Assembly (NCBI GenBank): GCA_008632985.1
Contig: QPGO01000256.1
Span: forward strand, 62,001-87,288
From: Psammoneis japonica
Taxonomy: Eukaryota
Length of the DNA stretch: 25,288 nt
Direction: 5' to 3'
In this document: positions 2,758 to 25,168 of the stretch, piece after piece
Layout: the number at the start of each line of letters is the position of its first letter
Numbering within the stretch: the first letter of the stretch is position 1
The notes under the pieces: generated by a model
The model's input: only the letters and a program-made list of their open reading frames with translations
What the model was told of the DNA's origin: nothing
The model's database searches: none
Program-made: the position numbers and the translations under genes

Positions 2758-5235
2758 ATGAACCGTTCCAACAAGCCGCCGACCAAGTTTTATGATGACA
2801 CCTATGAAAGGGGTGGGCATGGTAGAAATGTGGAGGAGGAAAAACAAGAGACAGTTCAAGAAGATCAAGAGGAGCAGCAAGAGAGGGAAGAAGCTCCTGT
2901 TACTGGAGCCTATGCAGTCAATCGTGATGGCGTGGTGCCGAGAGCCGGAAGAAATCCTGACAGCGTCACTCTCATGTCGGAACCCGAGAGCATTGATGCC
3001 TCTAGTGTTGTCACCCCTGGTACCCGCAATCAAAGCGAGCTACTTGTCCAAGCTCAACTTGCTCAAGTGACGGATGAAGAAGTGGCTCGGCTTCAAGAAG
3101 AAAATATTCTTCTTCGCCGATCCATTCCTTTGGCACAAGCCCAGGTTGCGGAACCTTTCGGGACGCCCTCTGATGACACCGAACACCATGTCGACTCAAC
3201 TGCTTCGAACAGCAAGAACGATGTTGATCCTAATGACGAGGAAAAGAAACTGCGTTACAACTGTTACATCATCGGAGGAGTTGCTGTTTTAGTCATTGCT
3301 GTAATTGTTGGAGTTGTTGTAGGAGTGAAGCCCTGGGACAACGGTGGAGGAAGCGGCGAGCAGTCAATGAAAGAATCTACCGGATTGGTCATGAGTTTGA
3401 TTGGCTTGGAAGCAGTGTTTGACAAGGCCGACTCGGACTTATGGGCTACCGTATCCAAGGAGTACATTGAGGACTTTTACAACAGTCGCCGACGCCGCTT
3501 GTTGCGCTCTTTACCGACGACCATTATTCACAATGTCGAAACTGCACTGGAAGTAACCGACACTAGTGTCGTTAAAGGTGGCAGTAACAACAACGGCACT
3601 GATTCTTCATTGGTTGTCACGTATGCCCAATCTATCATGTATAGATTCGAGGAAGAGGATGTTTCTATTGATTACTTGGTGACTGAACCATTCAGAACGT
3701 CATCCAGAAGAATGGCATACGTGGACGGCCTACAGGACGCGGGTGTCGCTCAAGGCGAGAACGTATTCGACAACTTGGCTGGCGTCAGCATGGGATCGAC
3801 TACACCAAATCCCTCCTCTCCGTATCCGACAAACACACCGACACAAGATCTCATGTCGCCTCCATCAACACTTGCTCCGACACCAACGCTGACTGCGCCT
3901 TCCACCCAAGAGTTAACACGATCTCCCACAGTCGACCCGACTTCTCCACCTACTGCAGCTCCTACCACTCCAAGTCCTACCCAAGCTTCCACGGTAGCCC
4001 CCGCCACTCTGGCTCCCACTCAAGCCCCGATGCCTTTGCCGCCAAATGTGACGTGGAATCCCGTCGGACAAGTCCTGCACGGCAAAGCTGCAAACGATTT
4101 TTTTGGCAGATCCGTCTGCTTGTCACGAGATGGAATGGTCATGGCGGTTGGAGCAAAGGAGATGTCGTCTGATCCCGGTTATGTTTCCGTCCATCGATAC
4201 AATCAAGCTACAAAAGAATGGATGAATGTGGGTCAGGAACTAGTTGGACAAGCCGACAATGACAAATTTGGCAATTCCGTGTCGTTGAATGGCGATGGTA
4301 CGATCCTTGCTGTCGGCGCCCCCCGTGGCGGATCGGACGCTGGACATGTACGAGTGTTTGAATACAGCCCTTTATCTGATGGTTGGGTTCTGCTTGGAAG
4401 CGACATTATTAAAGGACAATCCGTTGGCGGCGGTCGTTTTGGTTGGACTGTGTCACTCTCGGATGACGGAGGTATTCTTGCTGTGGGAGCTTTATCGGAC
4501 GATACGGAAAATGCTGAAGATTCTGGATCAGTGCGGATGTTTGAATACAATCACGGCACCTCATCCTGGAAGCAGCTTGGACAGACCCTGATTGGTCAAG
4601 TGGCAGATGACAATTTTGGTTTGTCGGTTTCCTTAAGTAGATCGGGTAGCATTGTTGGCGTTGGAGCGAATTTGGATGATTCGGGTGGACGCGATGCTGG
4701 TCAGGTGTCGGTGTATGAATACAATTTTTTGACGTTAAGATGGGATCCATTGGGAAGTCCAATCAATGGACAAGTCGAAGGCGGTTGGTTGGGATCATCG
4801 GTTTCTCTTGATGACAGTGGTTTGATCGTGGCCGTGGGTGCACATGGGACAAGCAACGAGAGAGTTGTCGTATATGCAAACGATCGCAAAGCGTCCTCGT
4901 GGAATCAACAAGGCCAAACTCTTTTTACGACTCAAGAAGACGACAAGTTTGGTTGGTCTGTGTCGTTGAGCGGAAATGGTGATGTCTTGGCTGTTGGAAG
5001 TTATTGGCATAACGTGAACACTAGACCACGCGCGGGTCAAGTTGCAATATTTCAGTACGACACCAACAGCGCCCAGTGGAATCAAGTAGGCTATCCCTTA
5101 AATGGTGCCACTTCATCCGAAAGTTTTGGATATTCTGTGGCCTTGTCCGCAGATGGGAGCCTCTTTGCAGTTGGTGCCCATCGCCGTGGTTCTTGGTCCG
5201 GTTCCGCATATGTATTCACGGCAACCAAAACTTAA
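2758..5235 (+). CDS. Single-pass membrane protein with Pro/Thr-rich stalk and C-terminal FG-GAP (integrin-alpha-like) beta-propeller repeats
   Basis: Intronless ORF, first ATG 2758. TM segment YIIGGVAVLVIAVIVGVVVGV, RRRRLLR motif, repeated PT(x)AP linker, and about seven repeats of FGxSVSLSxDGxxLAVGA...G.V.V(F/Y)xY...W..(L/V)G. Confidence 0.88.
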   Translation: MNRSNKPPTKFYDDTYERGGHGRNVEEEKQETVQEDQEEQQEREEAPVTGAYAVNRDGVVPRAGRNPDSVTLMSEPESIDASSVVTPGTRNQSELLVQAQLAQVTDEEVARLQEENILLRRSIPLAQAQVAEPFGTPSDDTEHHVDSTASNSKNDVDPNDEEKKLRYNCYIIGGVAVLVIAVIVGVVVGVKPWDNGGGSGEQSMKESTGLVMSLIGLEAVFDKADSDLWATVSKEYIEDFYNSRRRRLLRSLPTTIIHNVETALEVTDTSVVKGGSNNNGTDSSLVVTYAQSIMYRFEEEDVSIDYLVTEPFRTSSRRMAYVDGLQDAGVAQGENVFDNLAGVSMGSTTPNPSSPYPTNTPTQDLMSPPSTLAPTPTLTAPSTQELTRSPTVDPTSPPTAAPTTPSPTQASTVAPATLAPTQAPMPLPPNVTWNPVGQVLHGKAANDFFGRSVCLSRDGMVMAVGAKEMSSDPGYVSVHRYNQATKEWMNVGQELVGQADNDKFGNSVSLNGDGTILAVGAPRGGSDAGHVRVFEYSPLSDGWVLLGSDIIKGQSVGGGRFGWTVSLSDDGGILAVGALSDDTENAEDSGSVRMFEYNHGTSSWKQLGQTLIGQVADDNFGLSVSLSRSGSIVGVGANLDDSGGRDAGQVSVYEYNFLTLRWDPLGSPINGQVEGGWLGSSVSLDDSGLIVAVGAHGTSNERVVVYANDRKASSWNQQGQTLFTTQEDDKFGWSVSLSGNGDVLAVGSYWHNVNTRPRAGQVAIFQYDTNSAQWNQVGYPLNGATSSESFGYSVALSADGSLFAVGAHRRGSWSGSAYVFTATKT

Positions 5236-5439
5236 AAATTGTACCTCTTATGTTCTTCCTTTCCTATCGGTTGCACTGCATTTGTAATTCATTTCATGGC
5301 AGTGCAAGGACGGCAACATCGACATCAAGGGACGATGAGAGTTGCAATCAGCTTGATCTTGAACGCATTTCGCATTGCAAAATTAGTTCGCACAAATCTC
5401 TCATCAGCGCACCAACCACGAGTGGCTCCATCATAATGA

Positions 5440-8200
5440 TGGCTCCACACAGTGTGTTTTGCCAGAGTCCATTTGGCAACAGCCTAAAAAAGCAGGACAT
5501 CTTCCTGAAGAAGATGTGCATTCTTGTTCAGAAAAAAATGTCCGCATTGCTAGATTGTTTTGCTTTAAAATTTTTTGCTGGTGGCATCAAAACTCACTGC
5601 TTTTGGATCTCATTAATCTTGTCTGCTTCTGTTTCTTTGAGGTTGGCACTCAATTTTGCTTGAGCAAGATCCCTCCAAGCCCTCTTTCTGGCAACAAATG
5701 TGACACCTGCCCAAGGATGTGAGAGGAGTGAGGTGCATCTGTCCTTCCCCAATGCAGCTTCAATGGCTGATCACCACCCATGCTGCTCAGGGGTTTGTCC
5801 TGCTGTGTTGGAGGTGGGTTTTGGCAGAGTGAACTTTTGCCAGGGTGGTTGACACAGCTCGTCCCCAACTTTTGTTGCAGCCTTTTTCACCAGGAGTGGC
5901 CACAAATTCACAAGCAAAGAGGTGCTGCTGTCAGCTGCTGTGGCATCACATTGATCCAAAATTGAGAAAGCAGCGTGGTTGCTCAGGGAATTCACCAGAA
6001 GCAAGACTTGGTGCCATTTTCAGACTGGTTTCATGTGCACACTTGTGCTTTGGCACAGATGCCATTTTGCCAGTTTTTAATTTGTTGCTGTGATGCACAG
6101 CAGCCAGTGTCAAGTGACAACAGTCATTTCTTTTCATTCTTGGAGAAGCATTGGATTTCTGATTGGCAACGTTCATTGGCTTGTCTGCACTGGATGTGGC
6201 TCCATCATCTGTGAGTTTGCCAATGTCACACTGGACTTTTCCAAAGCTGCAAAGTCCACCTGGTGGTGGTGACATGTCAACTCACAAGGCTAGAGTTGGT
6301 GGTGCTGGAGCAGAGGCAATTGGATCCAGGGGATGCACCTTGTTGTGTCCCATGCCATGGACAAGCAGGCATCGGCCAAGTCAACCACAGTTTGACAAGT
6401 TCCCATGCAAAAGAAGTGTGGTGAGCTCTTGGTCCAGCCCGTGGGGAGCACCAGCAGCAAGGCCACCAGTGGCTCCTCTCCCAGTCCCAAAGGGAAAGCT
6501 GTTCTGAGCTTGGCCATGTCCTCCAGGCACAACCCAACTCTGCAGAATCTGTCCAAGAGATCCAGATCTATCATGTGAATGAATCTGCTTGGAGTGTGTT
6601 GCAGAACACTCAATCCAGTGCATGGCCAAATTGCATGGCCTCCAGTGGAGCAGGCTTGTGTGTCTTGTTGTTGAGACCACAGATGCTGCCTGCAACCAAC
6701 CCCACGGTGCAGTCTCCAGTGGATGGATGGCTGCCACAATCAACAGCCACCCAAATCTTGGAGGATGCCCTGTCTTCAGCAGTGAGTTGGACTGGGGCTC
6801 CATCACAGCAAAGACTTTCCAACAGCCTGGCAGCTGGATGGGGCAGCTCACTCACAGACCATGGTGCCAAATGAACTCCCTGTGTGGATGTTTCTCAAAA
6901 TGGAGCCAGCCTGAAGATTGTGAGAGTTTGATGCCTTCAACCACTGACTCACTCCAAGGGGGCTGCTGGTGTTGGTCAGGCAAGTTGGCAGGTGAGGGCT
7001 GCAGGTGAGTCCACTGACTTGCTGCTGGCCCAACACTTCAGGTGGAGAATGCCGCCAGTGTGGCTGCTGGCACCACCACTCCATCATCTTGAGGGTTGGG
7101 CAAATGTTCATGTGCAAAGGCACTCATGGCAGTGTGCTCACATCATGGTGCTGGGTTGTGACAGGTGCCACATTGCTCACAATTTGTCAAAGCACGTGCC
7201 TTTGAGAGGACAGTGGGAGAGGCAAATCTCACATGGGGCTCCACTGATGTTTGTTTGTTGAGGTGCAAAGCACTGCCACAGAGTGAGCAAACAAATTCCA
7301 GCCTGTTCTCACAGGGCCGGGGTTTGTGACAGCAGCTCCAATCATGCCAGTGGAGAGTCAACACTGCCTTGGGGATCCTTGGTTGATTTTGGACCCTGGC
7401 CCATCAGATGGGTCAGAAGTGAGAGCACACACTTTGTCAGGTGTTGGCAAGCAGTCTGGAATGCATGGGACTCCTCCTTGCATGAGTCAGCACAAGACTC
7501 CAGTCATGATCTGGATGACCTCTCAGCAGATCCACGGCAGAACATTGCCTTTGAGAACTCTGTGTGCTGGACTGTTTGAGAAGATCCACCACCATGTCCC
7601 GCCAGTCTTCCTGGCAGAACTCATTGCCTTGAAAACCAAAGATGTGCCCATCCTAAAGGTGAGGTTGTGACCAACTGTAAGTGGGAGAGGGTGACAGATG
7701 CAAGTGACTTGACAGCCGGCACACTGCAGCTTGGCAGTGCACACATGGCCACCGCTCTCTGGATCATGCACAAGAAGCAGGTGTTCCAGAGTGCAAGTGT
7801 GGAAGCCACAAACATCCATGGCACAATGGCTGAGGAGGTTGGTGGTGCATTCTCCACCCAAATGATTGCTTTGATCATCTGCTTGTCTTGAGAGTTTTGG
7901 GAGGTGCGAGTGTGGTGCTTCAGCAGCTGTGAGGGGGACAACAGGAGCCACGCTGAAGCATGGTGTGTGTCACTTTCTTTTTCAACATTGCAACTGCTGC
8001 TGTGGTCAATGGGTGGCAACAAGTTGCAAAACAGAATGCCATGGCATTCCGATCCGTTCAAGGTTGTGGGCGGGGCCAGCCATCCATGGCTGGCCTGGGC
8101 CAGGCACGGGCCGTACCTTGCCAGACACGTCTGTCCGTCCCATCGCAGCTCCAGTTGAGGGAAATCGAAAAGTGGTTATGTCGTACGCAGATCTATGTAG
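5440..8200. mobile_element. Decayed transposon block (boundaries approximate), almost devoid of TpA and CpG
   Basis: Abrupt compositional change between two genes. By hand, 5 TA in 5641-8100 and about 15 CG in 5641-8040. Contains an RT remnant. No termini could be defined. Confidence 0.75.
6370..6860 (-). pseudogene. Frameshifted reverse transcriptase remnant of a tyrosine-recombinase (DIRS/Ngaro-like) retrotransposon
   Basis: Minus-strand fragments LPHPAARLL..L..DGAPV, GLN...APLEAMQFGHALD, IHMIDLDLLDRFCRVGL (cf. KxDLSDGFYR) and AFP.G.GEEPLVALLLVLPTGWTKSSPHFFC (cf. LPMGWxxSPPYFC), in RT order. Recognised from memory, not searched. Confidence 0.7.
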
Positions 8201-13558: not shown

Positions 13559-16500
13559 CTATCGCCACAACTTGATTGCCCCATCATATGAGCAACTGAG
13601 TAAGGTTCTTATGGGATACGAGATCATTTTCAAATCTGTAATAGAGTCATGATGTTTCGTTTCAGGTTTGGAAAGACCCCGCTGAAGCTTTCGCGGAATT
13701 TTTGAACTCTCAATTTCGCCGACACCCAAAGGCTCATTTTCCCTGCAAGTAATGAGTCGGCCGTAGTCAAAGTCGACACGAGCAAAGGTAGGCCTCTGTT
13801 GCCCCCCACTAATCGTATAACATTTCGTCGGAGACAAGAAATCAAAGTAACGAATATGGCAGTCGCTGCCTCCTGTTATGAGGTAGTCCCTCTTTTCGTG
13901 GCCACCAACGCTACCAACCATTCCCGTCATGCGACCTTTCGAGGCCGTGGATGCAAAATCAAAGCTATCAGGTAGACGGATATGCTTTCTCATCGATCGA
14001 CTGTGGTAATTCGTTGTGATTGGCACCTCGCGAAGAGACGGCAATGTTGTTGCTGGTGGATCCATGTATCCAGTACCAGGCTCAATGACGCGGAAGCATT
14101 GGCAACAGCTACTGCTTGCAATATCAAACATGGAGCACTCGTTGGGGCCGCATGCTGCAAACATGTACGGGCGTGCGTCGTTACTCGAGACGTTGTGCCC
14201 ATGAGGTAGTGCTGAATAGGATGTCGCAAGACGGTTCACAGGAGAAGCGCTGCTATGCTGCCACAGCTTTACCATTTGCTGAAACCGTATATCCCACAAG
14301 GCAAGGAACCCACGACTTGTACCAGTCACCATCCAATGACGATCGTTACCAAGTGACATGCTCGTCAGATACCCAATGTCAGGCCGGTGTTTCAAGATAA
14401 AGGGCTCTCTTGCACTTCTCAAGTCCCATGAATGAACCAAACCTTTTTGAGTGGCAAAGGATAGGATGGACGCAGAAGGGGTATTGAAATGAGAAACAGC
14501 AAGTACTTCTCCTTCCACTGGATCGATTTTGCGAATAAGACTACTTCCTGAAACCCTTGACATTTCGTACGTGTCACTGGTTCCTGCAGCAAACTTTTCC
14601 GCGATTTTCTTACTCGTTGTCACTGCGTCAACACGCCACACGTGCACAGACCCGTCACTGGCACCAGAAACTACAGAATGACTATTCTCGACAATTGCAA
14701 CATCATTGATTCGGGGATAGGCATGGCCTGCATCCTCAGTGTGACCAGAATAAGTCAGACTGCTCTCGAGAATCCCGACAGAGTCTTCTGCTTGTCGAAG
14801 CTCCCAAACACGACATGTACCATCGTGACTTGCTGATACAAAAAAGCCTTGATCTTTTGTAACCGCCAGTCGAGATACAGGAGCAGAATGGCCACTTTTC
14901 AAAGAGCTACTGGCTAAAAGGGCATCAGATTTTGGTCTCCATTCTCTAGATGACGTATCCTTGGGAGAAGCGGACGATGGGCGCTGAGATGTCACGGCTT
15001 GTCGACTACGTTCGCGTAGCACACCAAGGTTTGGAGGGAGTGGCGGCACGCTAAGGCCTTTCAACTTCGATGTGAGTAACATGGTATCGACATCGGACGG
15101 GTCCAATCGCGCTTCTGCGCCCCATTCACCAGTCGACGCAGAATCGATAACTTTCGATTCCGATGATGTCAGGATTTGCTTGGCATCGGCTTCTGTCAGA
15201 CGCTTGTCATCCGGAAACACGTCACCCTCTGAAGTCATGGCAGCGTCTAGCAATGCTTTGTCCTCTTCCGCTGGAGTTGACAGAGGCATGAGGGAGAGAC
15301 CATAGACCTTGCTCAGTGTAGCAACAGAGCGAATTCCGCATGTCTCGGAGCAATACGACCCATTGCTCTGAGAAAAGTCTCTCAAATCACTATACCACAT
15401 TGGCAAGTGAGCCGATCTCTGACCAGTGTATCTTTGGCTTGGAAACTTGACCTGTTGAGCGAGTTTCGGGTTACCTTCGATTGCATTTGCAAGATTACTC
15501 CGGAGAAATTCCTTCCGAGAAAGCGGGTCAAATACAAGTTTTCGGCTTCTCGACAACATGCGCAGATAGCTCGTGACTTGGCTAGAGTTTGATCCCACAA
15601 GAGGCTGAGAGGGAGAATCAATGCCTGCGGTATGCATATGGCTTGGTCCGTTGCCTCCATCGTTACCATCCTGTACGTCAATACCAATTGATGTCCACTT
15701 GCCCGAAGTCGGCGAGAAGGATTGCAGCTTGTCCAAGTTGTCCAGCTCCTCCCTAAGCCTTTCTTTTGTCCAAGGAGGATATAGGCAAGCTCTTAGTCCT
15801 TCTGAAGTGGTCAAATGGCGTTCCGTCGGTTCAAACCTTAGATATGGTCGAAGAAGAGGCACCAAGAACACATCTCGATCTGGAAATCCCATGGCCACAG
15901 AAGCTGCATTGACCAACTTGATGGCCCCGTTGCGAACATAAGCTGACGGGTACAACAAGAGTGGTGAGTACCTTTCAAACAAACCAATGTTCTTCCCGTT
16001 GCTTCTCGAACGACCCGTGGCATCAGCTTCTGAAGAGTACGCCGGCGTCCCGACAAGAGCGGAACGTGAAAGCAATCCCAATTCAACCAACGCAGCCAAG
16101 CATAGCAGTGCCTGACTCATGACTAGGTCTTCACCGTCCACGAGTGCAGTCTCCAAACAGGGCAATACAAAGTGCTCTGTGGCAGCCCTACCGACAATGA
16201 AACAGAGCGAGGGTAAATGTTCAAAGAGCGACGCCCGCAATTGCCAATCTCGTCGATCATTAAGAAAGGCAAGAATCTGAGGCAAAATAAATGCAATGAC
16301 TCCGTCACGACCAAAGAAGTTACACAACCGCGGCAAATCATGGAGCAAGCCCAACTTGGGTGGAGACGATTGCTCCGACTGATCGGTAGCAATATGCATG
16401 ACCCACCGCGACACCATTTCATGCAGACCGGCAAGTTCGACATTGTACGTGTTGCTAATGAGCGTCTTGTCACCGGCCGATGATGTAATCTTTTGGTTTT

Positions 16501-18757
16501 CCAAAGGAGTCGACGACCCTGACGATGCCTTTGCATTGTCCAAGCCTATCGAACCGCTGTCGTGCGGACTCTTTTTGCTACTGCTATTGTCATCTCCCAA
16601 GAGATTTGCAACATCATCGGCAAAAACGTTATCCTTTGTTTCGTCCTTTGCTTCCTTGGTTTCATGGGCATGACTTGCACCACCACCACCCACGGCTTCG
16701 TAAAGTCGTACAGCATGTGATATATCCAAGAATCTCAAAGACGTTTCCGCCAAGAGCGGAATGCATTCGGAAAATGCAATTCTCACGACAAGCGATTGAT
16801 CCGTCAAGAGATGAGCCACACGTTTAAATATGTATTGCGGAAACACTTTTGAATCCGACGGCGCAAAGCTCTCGATCCGTGCCAAGGTACTCGTGAGTAC
16901 ACGAATGGCACCGGCTCTCACAAGGGCGTCTTGATCGTGCAACAAATCAATCGTGGTGGGTACAATGCGTTGCAGACGAGCATCGTCGGTACAAGCATGG
17001 CGGCCAAGCCGCTGCAAGAGTTGCAATCCAACAAATTTGCTAGACGGCCGTTGGACGTGACGAATCGTGACGAGAATCAATTGCAAAAAGAGCAAAAGGG
17101 AACTCTTGCAAGATGGAGACCGGGACTCGTTCTTGTCAGTCACGTCGGTAGGAGGCTTTGATTCATCATGATGCTCTGGCTTCAACCGGCCTGCCGCTTC
17201 AGGTTCCGGTGCGACGACATTATCAATGGTTAGAGAATCTAGCTTGTCAAGCAATTCTTGGGTTTCCTTCATCAACTTGTCCAGGTCATTCTCTTGTGGA
17301 TGGTTATCTTTGTCCCCGCCTACATCTTGTTGTTGTTGTAGATCCGTCTCCTTGATATCTTCGTCGTCGTCCTCATTCTTGTCCAGCTTGATAATGGTTT
17401 CACCCAAGATTTGATCAAAATAGGCTTGTCCAGTCTCATCATGAATACCAAGACAGGCAAACAATACTCTATCATAATAGGAGGCCGCCATGGCAATACG
17501 AGCATCGGGTGTAATGACTGTTTGGTTCTTGGGAGCACAAATCACCTTTTGAAACAGCTCGGTAAACAAATCAAATGTCTCCGGCATGACGGGGGACCAA
17601 GAAGTGGATGGCTGTGACGTTGTTATGTTTTTTGCGTCCGAGGTTGAAGTACTCCTGTCAGCGTCTCTTCCACTACTACTCCCTTGTGGTTGTTGTTGTT
17701 CGAGTCGTTGCAAATACTCCTTTGCCGACAGTCGCTCTTTGGGATTTAAATGCAACATGTGTCGACAGGCAGCACGGGTCGAAGACGATTCAATCTTGTG
17801 TAGATTGGATAAAAGTGCCGCCGTCAGGGTGCCCTGTCGACGATATTCCATCAAATCCCCCAAATCCATGGCACGTTCACCGTTCAAAAAGAGTTCCATC
17901 ATGCAACAACCGACACTAAAAATGTCACTGGCCGGTGTCAATCGTGTCAAGCGTGTGTTGTTTGTTTCTGTGTTTTGAGCCGTAATAGTAGATGTTCTCG
18001 AGGGAGTATAGAAACGTTCCGGTGCCAAATAACAACGCTTTTCAGCACGCGGTGACGTTGTTTTTGTTGTGGAAGAATGTTGTTGTAATTGTTCTTGAAA
18101 ATAATACAAATACATGGACGGATCATCATCGGGTAAGGCCGTCACGTTGTGTTTATAGGATGAAACATCCAACAAAATTACATGATTCCAACTCGTCAAA
18201 CCGATATTTTCCGTTGTGAGGAAACCGTGCACCACGTTTTTATCATGCAAGTGTTGTACCGCACGCAACAATTGTCGCAAGACCCATTGTTTTTCCACAA
18301 CGTGCAAAAAGGGCCGACACGCCAATCGATCCGACAGTGTCGTGTACACGTGACTTCGCATGACATAAATCGGAATCATGGTGGCATTCGGATTGGCAGC
18401 AGCCGTAGACATAGGAGTCCCCACTTTCCAATACAAAAAAGGTGCCACATTTACCGAAGCATTATCTCGTAGTACTTGTTTGATGCGACGCAATTCAGCC
18501 TCTTGTTGTTCCAACGATTCCTCCAATTGCTTTGCAGGTACATACATGGACTTGACGACTACCAAATTACCAAGGGATGAATTCTTGAGCAAAAAGGTTT
18601 TGGACATGCGGCCCGAACCGGGAACCAAACGTTGCTCCACACTGTAGTTGGGAAAATTCCCAGCCAAGTCCAACTCCTCGTCTTGTATTGAGATTGTTGT
18701 TGTTGCACTTGTTGTTGTACTTGGAGGAGTGGATGACGAGGAGTGATGAGCGCCCAT
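13559..18757 (-). CDS. VPS15: Phosphoinositide 3-kinase regulatory subunit 4 / Vps15 (kinase-like domain, HEAT repeats, WD40), 1732 aa, apparently intronless
   Basis: MG start (MGAHHS) matching the myristoylated Vps15 N-terminus. Motifs TLSDRLACRPFL..VEKQW, LPDDDPS, RCYLAPERF, DIFSVGC, RLQRIVP, FPQYIF, AFLNDRRDWQLR, and WD40 motifs FVSASHDGTCRVWE and SCSYDGAIKLWR. Confidence 0.95.
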   Translation of the reverse strand: MGAHHSSSSTPPSTTTSATTTISIQDEELDLAGNFPNYSVEQRLVPGSGRMSKTFLLKNSSLGNLVVVKSMYVPAKQLEESLEQQEAELRRIKQVLRDNASVNVAPFLYWKVGTPMSTAAANPNATMIPIYVMRSHVYTTLSDRLACRPFLHVVEKQWVLRQLLRAVQHLHDKNVVHGFLTTENIGLTSWNHVILLDVSSYKHNVTALPDDDPSMYLYYFQEQLQQHSSTTKTTSPRAEKRCYLAPERFYTPSRTSTITAQNTETNNTRLTRLTPASDIFSVGCCMMELFLNGERAMDLGDLMEYRRQGTLTAALLSNLHKIESSSTRAACRHMLHLNPKERLSAKEYLQRLEQQQPQGSSSGRDADRSTSTSDAKNITTSQPSTSWSPVMPETFDLFTELFQKVICAPKNQTVITPDARIAMAASYYDRVLFACLGIHDETGQAYFDQILGETIIKLDKNEDDDEDIKETDLQQQQDVGGDKDNHPQENDLDKLMKETQELLDKLDSLTIDNVVAPEPEAAGRLKPEHHDESKPPTDVTDKNESRSPSCKSSLLLFLQLILVTIRHVQRPSSKFVGLQLLQRLGRHACTDDARLQRIVPTTIDLLHDQDALVRAGAIRVLTSTLARIESFAPSDSKVFPQYIFKRVAHLLTDQSLVVRIAFSECIPLLAETSLRFLDISHAVRLYEAVGGGGASHAHETKEAKDETKDNVFADDVANLLGDDNSSSKKSPHDSGSIGLDNAKASSGSSTPLENQKITSSAGDKTLISNTYNVELAGLHEMVSRWVMHIATDQSEQSSPPKLGLLHDLPRLCNFFGRDGVIAFILPQILAFLNDRRDWQLRASLFEHLPSLCFIVGRAATEHFVLPCLETALVDGEDLVMSQALLCLAALVELGLLSRSALVGTPAYSSEADATGRSRSNGKNIGLFERYSPLLLYPSAYVRNGAIKLVNAASVAMGFPDRDVFLVPLLRPYLRFEPTERHLTTSEGLRACLYPPWTKERLREELDNLDKLQSFSPTSGKWTSIGIDVQDGNDGGNGPSHMHTAGIDSPSQPLVGSNSSQVTSYLRMLSRSRKLVFDPLSRKEFLRSNLANAIEGNPKLAQQVKFPSQRYTGQRSAHLPMWYSDLRDFSQSNGSYCSETCGIRSVATLSKVYGLSLMPLSTPAEEDKALLDAAMTSEGDVFPDDKRLTEADAKQILTSSESKVIDSASTGEWGAEARLDPSDVDTMLLTSKLKGLSVPPLPPNLGVLRERSRQAVTSQRPSSASPKDTSSREWRPKSDALLASSSLKSGHSAPVSRLAVTKDQGFFVSASHDGTCRVWELRQAEDSVGILESSLTYSGHTEDAGHAYPRINDVAIVENSHSVVSGASDGSVHVWRVDAVTTSKKIAEKFAAGTSDTYEMSRVSGSSLIRKIDPVEGEVLAVSHFNTPSASILSFATQKGLVHSWDLRSAREPFILKHRPDIGYLTSMSLGNDRHWMVTGTSRGFLALWDIRFQQMVKLWQHSSASPVNRLATSYSALPHGHNVSSNDARPYMFAACGPNECSMFDIASSSCCQCFRVIEPGTGYMDPPATTLPSLREVPITTNYHSRSMRKHIRLPDSFDFASTASKGRMTGMVGSVGGHEKRDYLITGGSDCHIRYFDFLSPTKCYTISGGQQRPTFARVDFDYGRLITCRENEPLGVGEIESSKIPRKLQRGLSKPETKHHDSITDLKMISYPIRTLLSCSYDGAIKLWR

Positions 18758-18952
18758 GACTGAACAAAGAAAAGAGTTATAGAGTAGCAATATAAAGTGG
18801 CTGTGTTGTAAGGATGATAAAAAATCAGAGCATTCAGAGTGATAAAGTAACTTGGCTGTCCGATTCAATCTTGTGATGTGTTTGTCAGTATGATTGGGTG
18901 ATTGGTGCCCACAGATATTGAGCCCCAAAAGACCGTTTTGCACCGAAGATAA

Positions 18953-19899
18953 CCCTTTGACACATGGCCACTGTTATTTGGGGCCTGGCCCCAAATAATG
19001 CGCCATTCTGATTGGTCTAAATAAATAAATCCACAAGTAAATTTTGGCGGGAAAATAACGGCTAAATCGCTTGGGGCCTGGCCCCAAATGCACAAGGTTC
19101 GAGTGACGAATGTGCTCGAGGCATTGAAAGATTTTCATGGCTGTTTACGTCGATTGTTGCACTGGTGTGTTGAGCGATCACACGCGAAAACCCAGACGAG
19201 AAAACGAGATTTTTTGCCTCCGCAACAGCATCCATAGATGGCGACTCGACCGCCATTTCGGTGGCCGGAGAAAATGGCGGGAAAGCTGCAACCGTCATGC
19301 AGGAATCTCAGATTTCAGAATTGTTTGTTGGTGGAAACAAAAAATGAAAAGGAGTGGTTGAAAGTGCCGCATGGCAACAAACATCAAACCACCACAAGTT
19401 TGATTCTTGTTCTTGCTTGTTGACACAAAGTCAAATCTTACGGTGCCAAAATGATCAACAATCAAAATGAAAGTTGCGATGTAGATAAACCAAGCATGGT
19501 TGTTTTGATCGTGTTGTTTTCATTCATCTCAGACAACAATGAGGTGCTCGCCGTGTCGCGAACCTGACATTGTCGACTTCCCCCTGATTTGCCATGTTGT
19601 TTGCTCATCTGTGATTGACACACCGTTGATTTGGATGGAAAACAACCATGTGGCTAAAGTGACAACCAAACAGACACACATGAACACACAGAGTTCATGC
19701 TGTGAAGACCTGTCAGAACAGAGAGCAAATGGGGTCTCGCGTCCTGAAACCGCCATCATCGAGTCGTCGTGGTTCCCGTTTGCAAGAGCAGGCATCGTGC
19801 TCAAATCATGGTCGTCAAGATTCTGTCAGACAAAATGTCTGACCGTTAAATTCTCATTTGGGGCCTGGCCCCAAACAAGCAATTTCATGTGTCAAAGGG
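18953..19899. mobile_element. Non-autonomous piggyBac-like DNA transposon (947 bp), 195 bp upstream of the VPS15 start
   Basis: Perfect 14-bp TIR CCCTTTGACACATG (18953-18966) / CATGTGTCAAAGGG (19886-19899). At both ends a 7-bp spacer is followed by the palindrome TTTGGGGCC(T/A)GGCCCCAAA, with a third copy at ~19071-19088. Flanks are ATAA (18949-18952) and ACAA (19900-19903), consistent with a mutated 4-bp TSD. CCC...GGG ends suggest piggyBac. No transposase recognised. Confidence 0.8.
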
Positions 19900-19903
19900 A
19901 CAA

Positions 19904-20562
19904 CAGACGGAAAATCTGAAAAATGCACGCACACACGAAAAGTGGGGGATGAGCACGCAGGCAACTCTTTACAAACTGTGCAGGAAATGTGCCAGGGTTT
20001 GTGTAGAATTTGACAATGACACAATTCCATTTTGATGGCGACAAGTGGAAACACACATGGTTTTCCAGTGCAAATTTGACAGCGACGCCACAGACGGAAT
20101 CATTGTCAACACACCAAAAACTGCATCAGGTTTTCGATCACAGGGAATTCCTTGTTTGGCGCTTGACTTCCCCAGACAAGGAAAGACAAGGAACCAAGAA
20201 AAGGAAAAATTAATTGGTCATTCAATGTGCAGTTGCAACCATCATGATCCTTTCATCCAGCTAGAAGTTGATTTGTCCAGAGCCTCTGGCTGCCAAAACA
20301 CCTCTTTTTGTGCAATGCACTCAATGGGTGAGGCAGACACCACTGGGGGGCACTTTCTCAAGGACAAAAAGATGTGCTTCCACGGGGTTTCTTCAAGTGC
20401 AATCTGCTTGAAGCAAGCCCACAAAAGCTCAAGTTGGTGTGGCAAATCTGGCGCACATTGTGCAACAAAACAAAAGAGGAAAGCCTCTTTGTTTCCTTCA
20501 TTCAACAAGCCAATGAGGGGGGAATCAAGATGTCCCGTGAGCATGAGAGCGGGGTTTTGGGT
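19904..20562. other. TpA-depleted decayed sequence of unidentified origin, probably another repeat fragment
   Basis: Same compositional signature as the flanking transposons; no protein motif recognised. Confidence 0.4.
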
Positions 20563-20841
20563 TGACAGAAATTGAAGGGCAAATGGCAAGAATTCAAACA
20601 ACAACTCCTCACTGCTGTCTAAATGGCAGATGAGTCTCCACTCAGAGACCGTCACAGGAGCCAAAAGACGTGCAAGTCGGCACAATCGGGCTGCTGTTGT
20701 CATTCTTGTGAGCTGTGTGGCTCAAAAGCAAACTGCATCGCATGCACACGTGTGGAGCTGAAGAGCACAAAAAACTGTGTGCGGTGAACTAAATGGCATG
20801 CGACATTTTGCGCACACCCAAATCTTGTTCAAATCCTGTCA
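20563..20841 (-). repeat. 3' LTR (279 bp) of the copia remnant, preceded by a polypurine tract
   Basis: Minus strand reads ACTGGGGAG (PPT, 20842-20850), then TGACAGGATTTGAA...TTCAATTTCTGTCA, with TG...CA ends and short terminal inverted repeats. Lies just downstream of the RNase H remnant. Confidence 0.9.
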
Positions 20842-21241
20842 CTCCCCAGTTTGCTTGAGGAGTCACAGAAACAGATTCGAAGTCGGATTGGTTGAAAGCC
20901 TTGGGATCGAAGTTCCAAAACATTAGAGGATGAAGGAGGTTCCAGATTTGGGAGCAACCCCAATGCTTGCTGAGGATGTCAGCCGGGTTGCGGGAGCCTT
21001 CGATGGAATGAAACCTGAGGAAACCGGAGGCAATCGCCTCACGCACATGATGGAATGAGAGGGTGGTGTGTCACTTGTGCAACTTGGAGTGCGGGATGGC
21101 AGCACTGTCCACAACCGACTCTTGTTGTTTTCAGGAAGATCATCATTTGCAGGCCACGGAGAGACACTGCTCCGGAACAGACAATGTCGACGGGCCCGTC
21201 TGTGAGGTGTCCATCAGCAACAAGCCTTGCTTTGTGCCGTC

Positions 21242-21638
21242 GACGCGTTCCAGATGCAGGTGGGAATCCGTGTGACATTGGGCCCGTAGACTTCTGCATG
21301 CGGAGCTCCGCAGTAAAATCACACGGCAATTAAAATGTCAATGATCGCCAACAGAAAATGAGGCAATTTTGCGAATGCACAAACTCACACATGATTGAAG
21401 TGCATCATTTTTTACTTGGCCAGTTGCATTCTTCAGACATTGAAGAATGTAACTGGCGCACTGTTGTTTCTATAAATTTGTCATATAAAACGTCTGGGGC
21501 TTCGCAAAACAGCGAGTCTGGACAATTTTTTTTAAATGTCACACGTAGAAATCTACGTGCAAAACACACGACGGATGACAAAAATTGTTGTTGTCACACG
21601 TCAGCACTGCGAGCTCCCACCTGGGGCTGGAACGCGTC
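21242..21638. mobile_element. 397-bp MITE nested in the copia RT, 4-bp TSD
   Basis: TIRs GACGCGTTCCAGatgCAGGTGGGA / TCCCACCTGgggCTGGAACGCGTC. TSD CGTC at 21238-21241 and 21639-21642. Excision restores DVKHDG-R-HKARLVADG. Confidence 0.9.
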
Positions 21639-21943
21639 CGTCCATCATGTTTGACATCACAGATGAGATGCACCCGGATCTTCTTGTGTCCTGATGGAGC
21701 ACTGGAATCATTGTGGTGTCTGCAGTTGTGGAAGACCTTGCACTCATCAAGCTGTCAGACAACGCCACAGAGCCCGCATCATCAAAGCCATTGTGTCTCC
21801 CCACTTGCGGTTGCCATTGCACTCATCAAGGGCCATGGCATGCTTGCAGTCCCGTGGCACTTCATGCCCGTGCTTGCATCATGGCACAGTGCAAAAGGAG
21901 CGCAACTTGGCTTGGTTGGCCATGCGGAACAGCTTCTTCTGAT

Positions 21944-22222
21944 TGACAGGATTTGAATGGGATTTGGGTGCACGCGAAATGTCGCACGCTGTTTAGTTTG
22001 CCGCACACAGTTTTGTGTGCTCTTTAGTTCCGCGCGTGCGCGCACGATGTAGTTTGCTTTTGAGCCACAAGGCTCACAAGAACAATGACAGCAGCCCAAT
22101 TGTGCCGACTTGCATGTCTTTTGGCTCCTGCAACAGTCTCTGAGCAGAGACTCATCTGCCATTTAGACAGCAGCAAGGAGTCATTGTTTGAATTCTTGCC
22201 ATTTGCCATTCAATTTCTGTCG
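21944..22222 (+). mobile_element. Solo LTR (279 bp) of the same copia family, inserted in opposite orientation into the pol region
   Basis: Colinear, gap-free match to the reverse complement of 20563-20841. TSD CTGAT at 21939-21943 and 22223-22227. Removal restores GWRRFCKMTLH-QKKLFRMANQAKLRS. The terminal CA reads CG. Confidence 0.93.
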
Positions 22223-23680
22223 CTGATGAAGGGTCATCTTGCAAAAGCGTCTCCATCCTTTGGTTTCTAGAAGGCCGTGCTCACGCACGCAGACAGCACA
22301 GGTGATGGGGTTGTCCTTGGCAATGACGGCAAGGGGTTCGGACGTGATCTCCCCATTCTCCCATTCAAGCATGACGTTGCAGCTTGAGCCTTTCCAAGAG
22401 GGATCATGGGGTTGCAATGGTCCCTCGTGCAACACGATGCATCGGAACTTCCAGAGGGCAGTGTCCTCGTCTTCTTGCTCAATGTGGTGCATGATGTCAT
22501 TGCAGGCCAGGACTTCCTCACATTCGTCATTGTTGATGGAGCAAATGAACTTGACCAGTTCAGGATTGTCTCCGATTTTCCAGTCATGGTCCTCAACGGC
22601 TTTGACGATGCGGGCTCTGTGGCGTTGTCCATCCTCTTGTGGCTTCATGAGGAAGGTGCGTTCTGTGATGTCCTTGGGGTCAAAGACCGGCATTTTGGGC
22701 ATCCTGATTGCCTCCCCATCTGGTGAATCTGGCAAATCCTGGGAGTCGTGGCGGGATTTAATGACAGGTTCAGCAGATTTCTTGTCAGGAGGATCAAGAT
22801 GCAGGTTTGGAGCAGAGATGGATCACGGGCGGGGCGCACGTTGGAACGGCAGGGAATCTTCTGAGTGTCGTCAGAAAGAATCTTGACCATCATTTGGTGG
22901 CCAATGTGCTTGGCAATGCCAACGTCAGTGTCATTGGGCTTCGCGTTGGAGCGGGCAGAAGGTGCAAATCCGGGAGGTTTCTCACCTGAACGGGCAGAAG
23001 GAGGCCGTTCAGGTGCCAGGAAACGTTGCAAGTCACCGGGTGGCAGGGGCTTGCGCCTGGTGAGATGAGCCAGAATGGGGTTGGCATCGGCTGCATCGCC
23101 ACCTACGAGCACAAATGAAAGTAGAATCAAGCATGAAAAGTGAAAATTGTGAGATTGAATTTTGCTCTGTGATTTTTGGTTTCTCCGAATGAGCTCTCAA
23201 TGGCCTAAAGCTTCTGCACTGCTTCTACAGACAAAAGGCCTTTCGGAGAATATATTCGTGACAACAGATTGTCCGGATGCGATTGCTGTTGACACGTAAG
23301 ATGTCAACATCGTCAATCGATCGTATTTGCAATTTTCGACATCCGATCAACTCTGTGTGGCATCGTTCTGTCCTTTGTACGCATCCACGACTGTGGTACG
23401 ATTGACATATATAATATATAATTCCAAATATGTATATAACAGTCGCATGCTGCATTCGCCTCCCTAATTGCGCATTAGAGTTATTCGTTAAGTGGAATAA
23501 TTTGACTGACATTGACACTGTCAATAATGTCTCCACGTTAACTGTATTGTGCCATTAGCAATGACTGTTGTTGTTTTATATTATAGGCCAGCATAGGGCC
23601 GGCCGTTTCACTTTCCAAATGTCTTTCGAGAGTGTCATGGTTTGTCTCACGCTCTATGTGTATATGTAACGGTGCATGTG

Positions 23681-23694
23681 TATATATATATATA
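23681..23694. repeat. (TA)7 microsatellite within a TA-rich island
   Basis: tatatatatatata. Confidence 0.7.
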
Positions 23695-24341
23695 AATATA
23701 CTGTAGTATTGCGTCGAGTGGACAGAAGGAGCAATTGTCCTGCTGTTCTTTCATGGTATCGATTGTACATAGCATTCTGCCCAGCACTCGATGTACAGTG
23801 CGCTCCTAATTGGCGTTCACTTACTTTACTTACTTGTGGATTTCGCCATATTGCTCTATTGCACTACCACGTTTCATAAGTAGTAATTAACGATGGTCAA
23901 GGATATGACCATTTCGTCTTGACATTCAATCCTGTGATGGTTGTGAATTCCATCATGGATTTTTTGTACTTTAACCATCTGTCAGTTGGATTTTAATCGT
24001 CATTTGGACGTTTCTTTTTGACATGCCGGTGTCATTTTGTCTTTCCGAAGGCACTGCTTTCGTGCACTAAGTGGATAATGTCCATTTTTCTTTTCTTTTT
24101 CTGAATCTTTGGCACCCCTGTGGCAGGGGAGCTGTGTGTGTGTGCGTGGTTGTGCGCGCACGGCTTCGCCGTGCGTTGAGTTTTAATGTCAACATCCGCA
24201 CGAATGTGTGTGTTCCACAAGTAAAAATTCCCATTCCACAGCTCCCCTGAAACTCCAACCACCAAAAACCGAGGGGTCGGAAGCGCACTTTCGGGAGCTC
24301 TTTTTCTCCGCACAAAAAACACGCGTTTCATCGACTCGACC

Positions 24342-25168
24342 ATGATGATGCCTCGTAGTTCTTCCCCATCGCCTTCCCAGGACGCCGATCCTGCTGACAC
24401 CGTTGCTGACAACACTGACACAACAGGTGATGTCATCATTCCGGTTCTCGTGGGTGTGACACGCACAAAATAAGATGCTACAAACTCACACTGTTGTTTG
24501 CACGCTCCACCGCCTCCCACAGATGCTGTCACGAATTCCAACACCGCACCTGCGTTTCGGGCCCCTGGCATGCCCGATGCTGTCACTCCTGCCCTTGCTG
24601 CCGCAGGTGCTGTTGATGCTGTCATTGCATTTTGCCAATGACGTCCACAATGAAATGCTGACAACTCACACTTCTTTCATTCTCGCCCCACCGCCTCCCA
24701 CAGATGCCATCACGAATTCCAACGCCGCACCTGCGTTTCGGCCCCCCAGCATGCCCGACACTGTCGCTCCTGCCCTTGCTGCCGCAGGTGCTGTTGATGC
24801 TGTCATTGTCTTTTGCCAATGACGTCCACAACGAAATGCTTGTAACTCACACTTCTTTCATTCACGCCCCACCGCCTCCCACAGATGCCATCACGAATTC
24901 CAACGCCGCACCTGCGTTTCGGCCCCCCAGCATGCCCGACACTGTCAACCCCACCCTTGCTGCCGCAGGTGCTGTTGACACTGTCATTGTTTTTGCTTTG
25001 GAAGGAGCACAATGGATGACGGATGACGGCGGACCAGGAAACCCACGCAACCACGGCCTGCTGATGGACGACACATCAATGGACATGAATGGTGCCTCTT
25101 GGTCAGCTCTCGAGTGCAGTCCAATCTTCAGAATGTGCAGGCACATTGTGCAGCTCTCTGTAAATTAG
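24342..25168 (+). pseudogene. Candidate spliced gene or pseudogene built from duplicated 84-nt exons; exons 24342-24426, 24523-24606, 24704-24787, 24885-(24968 or 25168)
   Basis: Three 96-97 nt GT...CTCAC...pyrimidine-rich...CAG segments, all phase 1. Splicing gives MMMPRSSSPSPSQDADPADTVADNTDTT then three copies of DA(V/I)TNSN(T/A)APAFR(A/P)P(G/S)MPD(A/T)VxP(A/T)LAAA. Lies in TpA-depleted DNA, so probably repeat-borne or dead. Confidence 0.5.
24470..24996 (+). repeat. Tandem repeat, 181-bp period, about 2.9 copies
   Basis: CCGCCTCCCACAG ends at 24522, 24703 and 24884. GCCGCAG|GT junctions at 24606, 24787 and 24968. Confidence 0.92.

Follow-up and report, generated by a model that had tools for sequence, protein, structure and literature searches.

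Fungal RIP, known from ascomycetes, is a homology-triggered, premeiotic process that depends on RID/DNMT4. In the chlorarachniophyte Bigelowiella natans, integrated NCLDV and virophage DNA undergoes de novo TpA→TpG/CpA hypermutation, at a rate about 1000-fold above background and in some lines only; in the text available to us, the authors propose an ADAT2-like (ADAT-type) DNA deaminase and suggest transposons as possible targets (bioRxiv 10.64898/2026.01.13.699255). As for diatoms, the LTR retrotransposons of Phaeodactylum tricornutum are described as CpG-methylated (PMC2806351, PMC9998398).

Here, we analysed a 25,288-nucleotide stretch of the genome of the diatom Psammoneis japonica (contig QPGO01000256.1, positions 62,001 to 87,288; the window), which bears two copies of one LTR. 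The ungapped alignment of 20563-20841 with the reverse complement of 21944-22222 (279 bp) revealed 40 differing bases, 37 of them transitions. The differences comprise 11 CA↔TG doubles (22 of the 40 bases), 10 CG↔TG/CA (nine, and a tenth at the terminus), 2 TG↔TA and five further events that change 6 bases. A random scatter of the 37 transitions would give only about 1.1 doubles (Poisson p=2e-8); pyrimidine-purine (YR) steps make up 144 of the 279 sites but 34 of the 40 differences (binomial p=1e-5). This recount agrees with the tally in a first-pass annotation of the window (11 CA↔TG, about nine CG↔TG/CA, two TG↔TA and about five others), which had also pointed to a CG at the 3′ terminus of one copy (22221-22222). 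The CG is present, and this is the sole copy ending so among 87 family members, the others all ending in CA (86/87), while the 5′ terminus is TG in 87/87.

The first copy (20563-20841, minus strand) is the 3′ LTR of a decayed and internally deleted Ty1/copia element. A purine tract precedes it, as it does the 3′ LTRs of full-length family members: the polypurine-tract-like motif (20842-20852, minus strand) lies immediately 5′ of the LTR, and this flank is identical in kind to that of the copies typed as 3′ LTRs. The same host element supplies, on the minus strand, a 3′ internal region with a pol remnant (20853-21239, matching positions 6561-6830 and 5323-5430 of the full-length copy L090), and the pol remnant continues past the second LTR copy, at 21639-21938 (L090 positions 5041-5324, 71% identity) and 22228-22924 (L090 4347-5014; 176 codons without Tyr). 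The second copy (21944-22222, plus strand) is a solo LTR from this family that was inserted into pol in antisense orientation, with its own target-site duplication (TSD) CTGAT on either side (21939-21943 and 22223-22227, plus strand, 0 mismatches). The host remnant is older than the solo LTR, because outside YR steps its pol differs from L090 at 95 of 665 aligned bases, and the solo LTR at 2-3 of 275. A datable pair would have direct orientation and one shared TSD; the two copies are inverted, and one has a TSD to itself. They are not a cognate pair, therefore their divergence dates no insertion, and the caution on LTR dating that the first-pass annotation attached to them is misplaced for these two copies.

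Both LTRs lie within a TA-erased repeat block (19400-23100; TA o/e 0.13, CG o/e 0.64), and repeat blocks show TA o/e 0.06-0.14 vs. 0.49-0.52 in genes; the genes that flank this block have TA o/e 0.49-0.52 and CG o/e of about 1.0. One of these neighbours, VPS15, has its nearest named relatives in pennate diatoms. The Pfam search with nine window frames from the mutated blocks found nothing. A second block in the window (5450-7950; TA o/e 0.06, CG o/e 0.09), for which the rest of the genome offers no more than short matches of 65-85% and Pfam no match, is probably an old, fully erased repeat, and a 181-bp unit is repeated three times within TA-poor DNA at 24503-25045.

The LTR family occupies about 950 candidate places in the genome, and its full-length members measure about 7.1 kb. 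Two sets of candidate loci, of 17 and 40, gave LTR pairs with 5-bp TSDs at 15 and 29 loci, respectively (44 elements, 57 loci), the TSD being perfect in 42 of the 44. The primer-binding site shows an 11-nt match to the anticodon arm of the genomic tRNA-Asn(GTT) at L210:54-127, and RVT_2, the copia-type reverse transcriptase, was recognized in the family copy L100 (E=4e-26), as the sole domain of the Ty1/copia order PR-IN-RT-RH detected in the mutated frame. The TG...CA LTRs, the 5-bp TSDs, the tRNA-Asn primer site and RVT_2 assign the family to Ty1/copia. The 98 homologues of the window pol remnant mostly carry PF07727, the named ones including Cylindrotheca proteins. Since the primer site matches tRNA-Asn in the anticodon arm and not at the 3′ end, a cleaved tRNA-Asn may prime reverse transcription in this family. 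The TG...CA LTRs, short TSD and RVT_2 are shared with the diatom Ty1/copia CoDi groups; in the part of the CoDi paper at hand, the words “dinucleotide” and “hypermut” are absent (PMC2806351).

Ancestral states were read from 85 other LTR copies, the site tallies coming from 88 copies extracted as the best matches to three queries among the roughly 950 candidate places. Seven of the 11 doubles trace to TA, three to CG and one was left unpolarised. At six of them (20785, 20701, 20698, 20653, 20610 and 20602), TA stands in 17-38 of the 85 copies and in 17-23 of the 23 TA-richest, and at 20794 it stands in 7 of 85; all seven TA-derived doubles have CG in none or one of the other copies. At 20813, 20741 and 20639, CG is found in 70-76 of 85 copies, while the double at 20826 (CA in 79/85, TG in 6/85) is not polarisable. 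Family TA sites were lost at 16 of 18 positions in the 3′ LTR and at 14 of 18 in the solo LTR, and family CG sites at 13 and 10 of 22, respectively. Both window copies are converted at 14 of the 18 TA sites (seven in opposite ways, seven alike), one of them at 2 and neither at 2; of the CG sites, 7 are converted in both. The first-pass annotation had explained the CA↔TG differences by a self-complementary ancestor struck on opposite strands, and had proposed to classify each site through the genomic copies, with an origin of all of them from CG as the outcome that would speak against it. This outcome is absent, and the explanation is borne out by seven TA and three CG ancestors, leaving one site unpolarised; the near saturation that it also claimed holds for TA and not for CG.

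Two further lines give the same polarity. At the primer site, where complementarity to tRNA-Asn marks TA as ancestral to TG/CA, TA is intact in 26 copies (mean LTR TA 14), while 15 copies with TG and 2 with CA have mean values of 3-6. In the window pol remnant, conserved Tyr is read as Cys at codons 22504, 22381 and 22291 (Tyr in 93/95, 77/96 and 92/95 homologues) and as His at 22486 (Tyr in 49/96), so that the comparison with the 98 outside homologues agrees in direction with the site tallies. Family frames of 1,655-1,994 codons remain open, with Tyr contents of 0.4-2.7% vs. 2.2-5.0% in the 98 homologues. Counts of “intact” elements are thus too high, because translated copies look open yet have lost their tyrosines.

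At insertion, an element has two LTRs of the same sequence. From 43 aligned cognate pairs we took the 25 in which the 5′ LTR keeps at least 13 TA. Their 3′ LTRs have lost 219 of 395 TA (55%; 110 to TG and 109 to CA) and 28 of 501 CG (5.6%), with 16 changes of other kinds among 3,304 sites (0.5%), so that the TA/CG hazard ratio is 14. In all 43 pairs there are 565 substitutions (TA 264/502, CG 71/873, 36 other). The 3′ LTR has changed relative to the 5′ LTR of the same insertion, therefore the mutations arise in chromosomal DNA once the element has been inserted. The results clearly show, to near certainty, that TpA→TpG/CpA transitions occur after insertion on either strand, one site at a time, at about 14 times the pace of CpG decay and at a level far above the background. 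The dominant change in the cognate pairs is T:A→C:G, not the C:G→T:A of RIP. The raw LTR divergence in the 25 pairs is 4.2% vs. 0.48% at other sites; hence the overestimation of age foreseen in the first-pass annotation is real for the family, though not for the window's unpaired copies, and without masking of TA and CG sites, family ages based on LTR divergence come out about nine times too high.

The target is more specific than the TA step alone. When the next base is T or C, the hazard of A→G in TA is 0.86 or 0.73, as opposed to 0.34 for A and 0.25 for G, and residual TA in the 19400-23100 block is 24 TAR to 6 TAY (8 to 1 in another erased block of the window) vs. 123 to 207 in genes. This shows that A→G is favoured in TAY or, equivalently, T→C in RTA. 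Neighbouring conversions fall on the same strand in 85 of 179 cases vs. 85.6±6.2 after shuffling, and no same-strand clustering was found at distances of 15-400 bp (LTR columns being paired through a multiple alignment, which is slightly noisy). From the terminal CG, the first-pass annotation had surmised that A→G may extend to CA. This did not hold up: CA→CG singletons are not elevated over AA/GA→G in the 26 younger elements (41/21,970 vs. 53/36,374, p=0.24), nor is their excess significant in all 32 elements (p=0.11), and 9 of the 11 CA/TG→CG differences in cognate pairs fall at sites with CG in the majority of family copies and therefore reflect CG decay in the 5′ LTR. Since CA→CG does not exceed AA/GA→G, the terminal CG at 22221-22222 is best read as one ordinary change; on contig C82, described below, the same solo insertion ends in CA.

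The 5′ LTR and a leader of about 700 bp are spared at first, and host genes keep TA. In 32 elements of 6.95-7.2 kb, gathered with a TA-rich LTR query or through an intact primer site and thus biased towards 5′-protected copies, 68% of TA survives in the 5′ LTR together with the first part of the leader vs. 31-33% in the body and 3′ LTR, the body tallies not being independent because the copies are related; CG is kept at 96-98% vs. 92-93% further on. The border of the protected zone lies near position 700 and shifts among copies, some of which erode from the outer edge. Protection of the 5′ end stands despite the sampling bias, because 21 of the 23 TA-richest among the 88 LTRs, collected with a 3′ LTR as the query, are 5′ LTRs.

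Contig C82, which looks like the other haplotype of the locus, matches the window over 15056-24115, with 96.7% identity across VPS15; synteny was compared over C82:40000-56000. A TA-rich repeat at 23105-23809, with about 500 candidate places in the genome, keeps 52 TA in the window; in its C82 counterpart (about 50257-51018), 44 of these are changed (21 to CA and 23 to TG), along with 5 of 31 CG, and 13 further differences are seen. Two copies of one locus can thus be erased to different extents. Across the 4 kb of VPS15 (15056-19089), the window and C82 show 24 TA↔CA/TG differences, about 2.5 times the prediction from other transitions by a rough count; this excess means that confinement to repeats may not be absolute and that a weak leak is possible. 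As a separate observation, C82 has at 46015-48297 (L095) a tandemly arranged unit of roughly 1 kb bearing three copies of the LTR vs. one in the window, and is missing the window insertion 21242-21637. This insertion is richer in TA than the DNA around it, its contig depth in the public run X1 is very high, and it is probably a younger high-copy repeat.

Given that CpG decay is also lower in the protected zone, that its border varies among copies and that the two apparent haplotypes differ, the mutation likely follows a domain of silenced chromatin; the mutational process and its targeting to such a domain together make a probable account. As to the chemistry, our best guess, a tentative one, is DNA adenine deamination: a TadA/ADAT-type enzyme would be brought to silenced DNA, as proposed for B. 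natans, and would deaminate adenine in TA to hypoxanthine, which is read as G. The elements would then be crippled by missense removal of tyrosines while their frames stay open.

Searches of the genome for deaminases, Tet_JBP and C5-methyltransferases found no culprit, and the deaminase genes look ordinary. There are 10 matches to PF00383 and 5 to PF14437, without expansion, and partial matches do not single out ADAT2. The best TadA-like frame is of the bacterial type, with Asp at the position that we take to be equivalent to D108 of E. coli TadA. A frame at L187:313-1785 (minus strand) fuses a guanine-deaminase-like part with a 2OG-Fe(II) dioxygenase whose close solved relatives include a fungal thymine dioxygenase; it most likely acts on free bases. 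Among the 29 C5-methyltransferase matches, the frames L176, L177, L178 and L182 (contigs C301 and C297) lie within TA-erased DNA (TA o/e 0.07-0.11) and possibly belong to methyltransferase-carrying mobile elements struck by the same process. Another match (L179/L180, C34:43451-44431) adjoins a chromodomain-bearing frame; chromodomain DNMT4 forms have been described in diatoms (PMC9998398).

We guess that adenine deamination ranks above a modified thymine and above error-prone synthesis. Under the former alternative, the thymine of RTA is converted, within silenced DNA, to a 5-hydroxymethyl- or 5-formyluracil type of base that mispairs with G, and TA loss is the decay of an epigenetic mark, just as CpG loss is for 5mC. 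This would be rather unlikely in our estimate, even though A→G on one strand and T→C on the other are indistinguishable by sequence, independent and non-processive conversions co-located with CpG decay fit a decaying mark, and 5hmU is tied to transposon silencing in the dinoflagellate work as far as consulted (PMC11572971, PMC11071213). Against it, a rate 14 times that of CpG decay seems high for passive mispairing, and the genome gave no Tet_JBP match, a weak point since the control search also matched nowhere. Rather than serving in defence, TA loss may come about as a side effect of a base mark.

The mutagenesis motif of polymerase eta is WA. Error-prone, polymerase-eta-like repair synthesis in patches begun at T:G mismatches from deaminated 5mC would make A:T→G:C changes at TA coincide in location with CpG decay, as seen here, and a slight post hoc excess of AAY (21/6,838 vs. 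5/7,774 for AAR) agrees with it. However, AA→AG amounts to 0.06-0.3% vs. a TA loss of 55-80%, TA loss shows no dependence on the distance to CG (rho −0.03, p=0.72, 158 sites), and same-strand tracts are lacking; this improbable explanation is largely refuted. ADAR/APOBEC-like editing of the element RNA or cDNA during retrotransposition is more improbable still. A U/T before the edited A is an ADAR preference according to the B. natans report as seen in part (bioRxiv 10.64898/2026.01.13.699255), and TG exceeds CA about 1.8:1 in the coding body; this skew arises because the TAY preference acts on Tyr codons. The LTR strands are equal (110 TG vs. 109 CA), the two LTRs of one insertion differ, as do the apparent haplotypes in their state, and the cognate pairs thus do not display the one-strand, pre-integration polarity expected of APOBEC or ADAR.

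An assembly artefact, in which long reads are miscalled where TA holds a modified base, would account for changes limited to one motif in repeats, and run X1, with which we checked the assembly, may be the source sample, its library not being on record. Nevertheless, an artefact is scarcely credible: X1 contains 51% of 388 31-mers sampled from 19500-23200, and its contigs match the TA-poor pieces 19870-19994 and 20134-20239 inside the erased block exactly, with no alternative letter, coverage of the G at 22222 not being part of this match. Over 18300-24300, the one substitution listed in X1, C/T at 19034, coincides with a difference between the window and C82, and most converted states are common to both (94-96% identity). 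Finally, methyl-CpG decay as the origin of all CA↔TG sites, to which we give practically no credence, would cover three of the 11 doubles and nine single differences at CG sites, but is refuted as the sole cause because seven doubles trace to sites with TA in other copies and CG in none or one, and is contradicted also by the polarity at the primer site and the Tyr codons and by the cognate pairs.

Taken together, the results extend TpA hypermutation, earlier reported for viral DNA inserted in the genome of a single rhizarian alga, to diatom LTR retrotransposons, where it has reached saturation. The TAY preference, the independent conversions on both strands and the protected island of the 5′ LTR and leader are traits that any candidate enzyme must explain; if the cause is a natural DNA adenine deaminase, it will be of interest for work on both genome defence and base editing. 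More speculatively, diatoms and chlorarachniophytes may share a dedicated defence pathway, a mirror of fungal RIP, in which a chromatin-recruited enzyme edits adenine (or thymine) in TAY/RTA and disables transposons and viruses; such a pathway would date far back within SAR and provide the first natural DNA editor of the A:T→G:C type that is targeted to chromatin. Our literature search, outside which most subscription papers lay, found no report of TpA hypermutation for diatoms or LTR elements, and scans of other hosts gave one weak locus in metagenomes and none in viral contigs or in a phage collection.

Compared with known systems, the CpG decay of 5mC in diatom transposons, as far as the sources at hand describe it (PMC2806351, PMC9998398), accounts for the CG→TG/CA part of the changes, but it cannot convert TA to TG/CA and is about 14 times slower here. 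Fungal RIP likewise consists of dinucleotide-specific transitions that saturate inserted transposon DNA and spare most host genes; to the extent that the sources cover it, RIP proceeds by C→T and lowers GC, whereas the diatom process is A:T→G:C and leaves long frames (1,709-1,994 codons) open. The closest resemblance is to B. natans, and the comparison is limited to the part of that report at hand. There, the host is a chlorarachniophyte, the main region is single-copy viral DNA and the rate was measured de novo, while here the host is a stramenopile, and the process, read from sequence comparison, has a high-copy LTR retrotransposon as its nearly saturated target. The TAY preference, 5′ LTR protection and absence of strand clustering are seen in the diatom, and the main text on B. 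natans is without the words diatom, LTR, retrotranspos- and trinucleotide. Just as in B. natans, however, the diatom changes are TpA→TpG/CpA on both strands, run from AT to GC and, a possible weak leak into VPS15 aside, are confined to foreign or mobile DNA.
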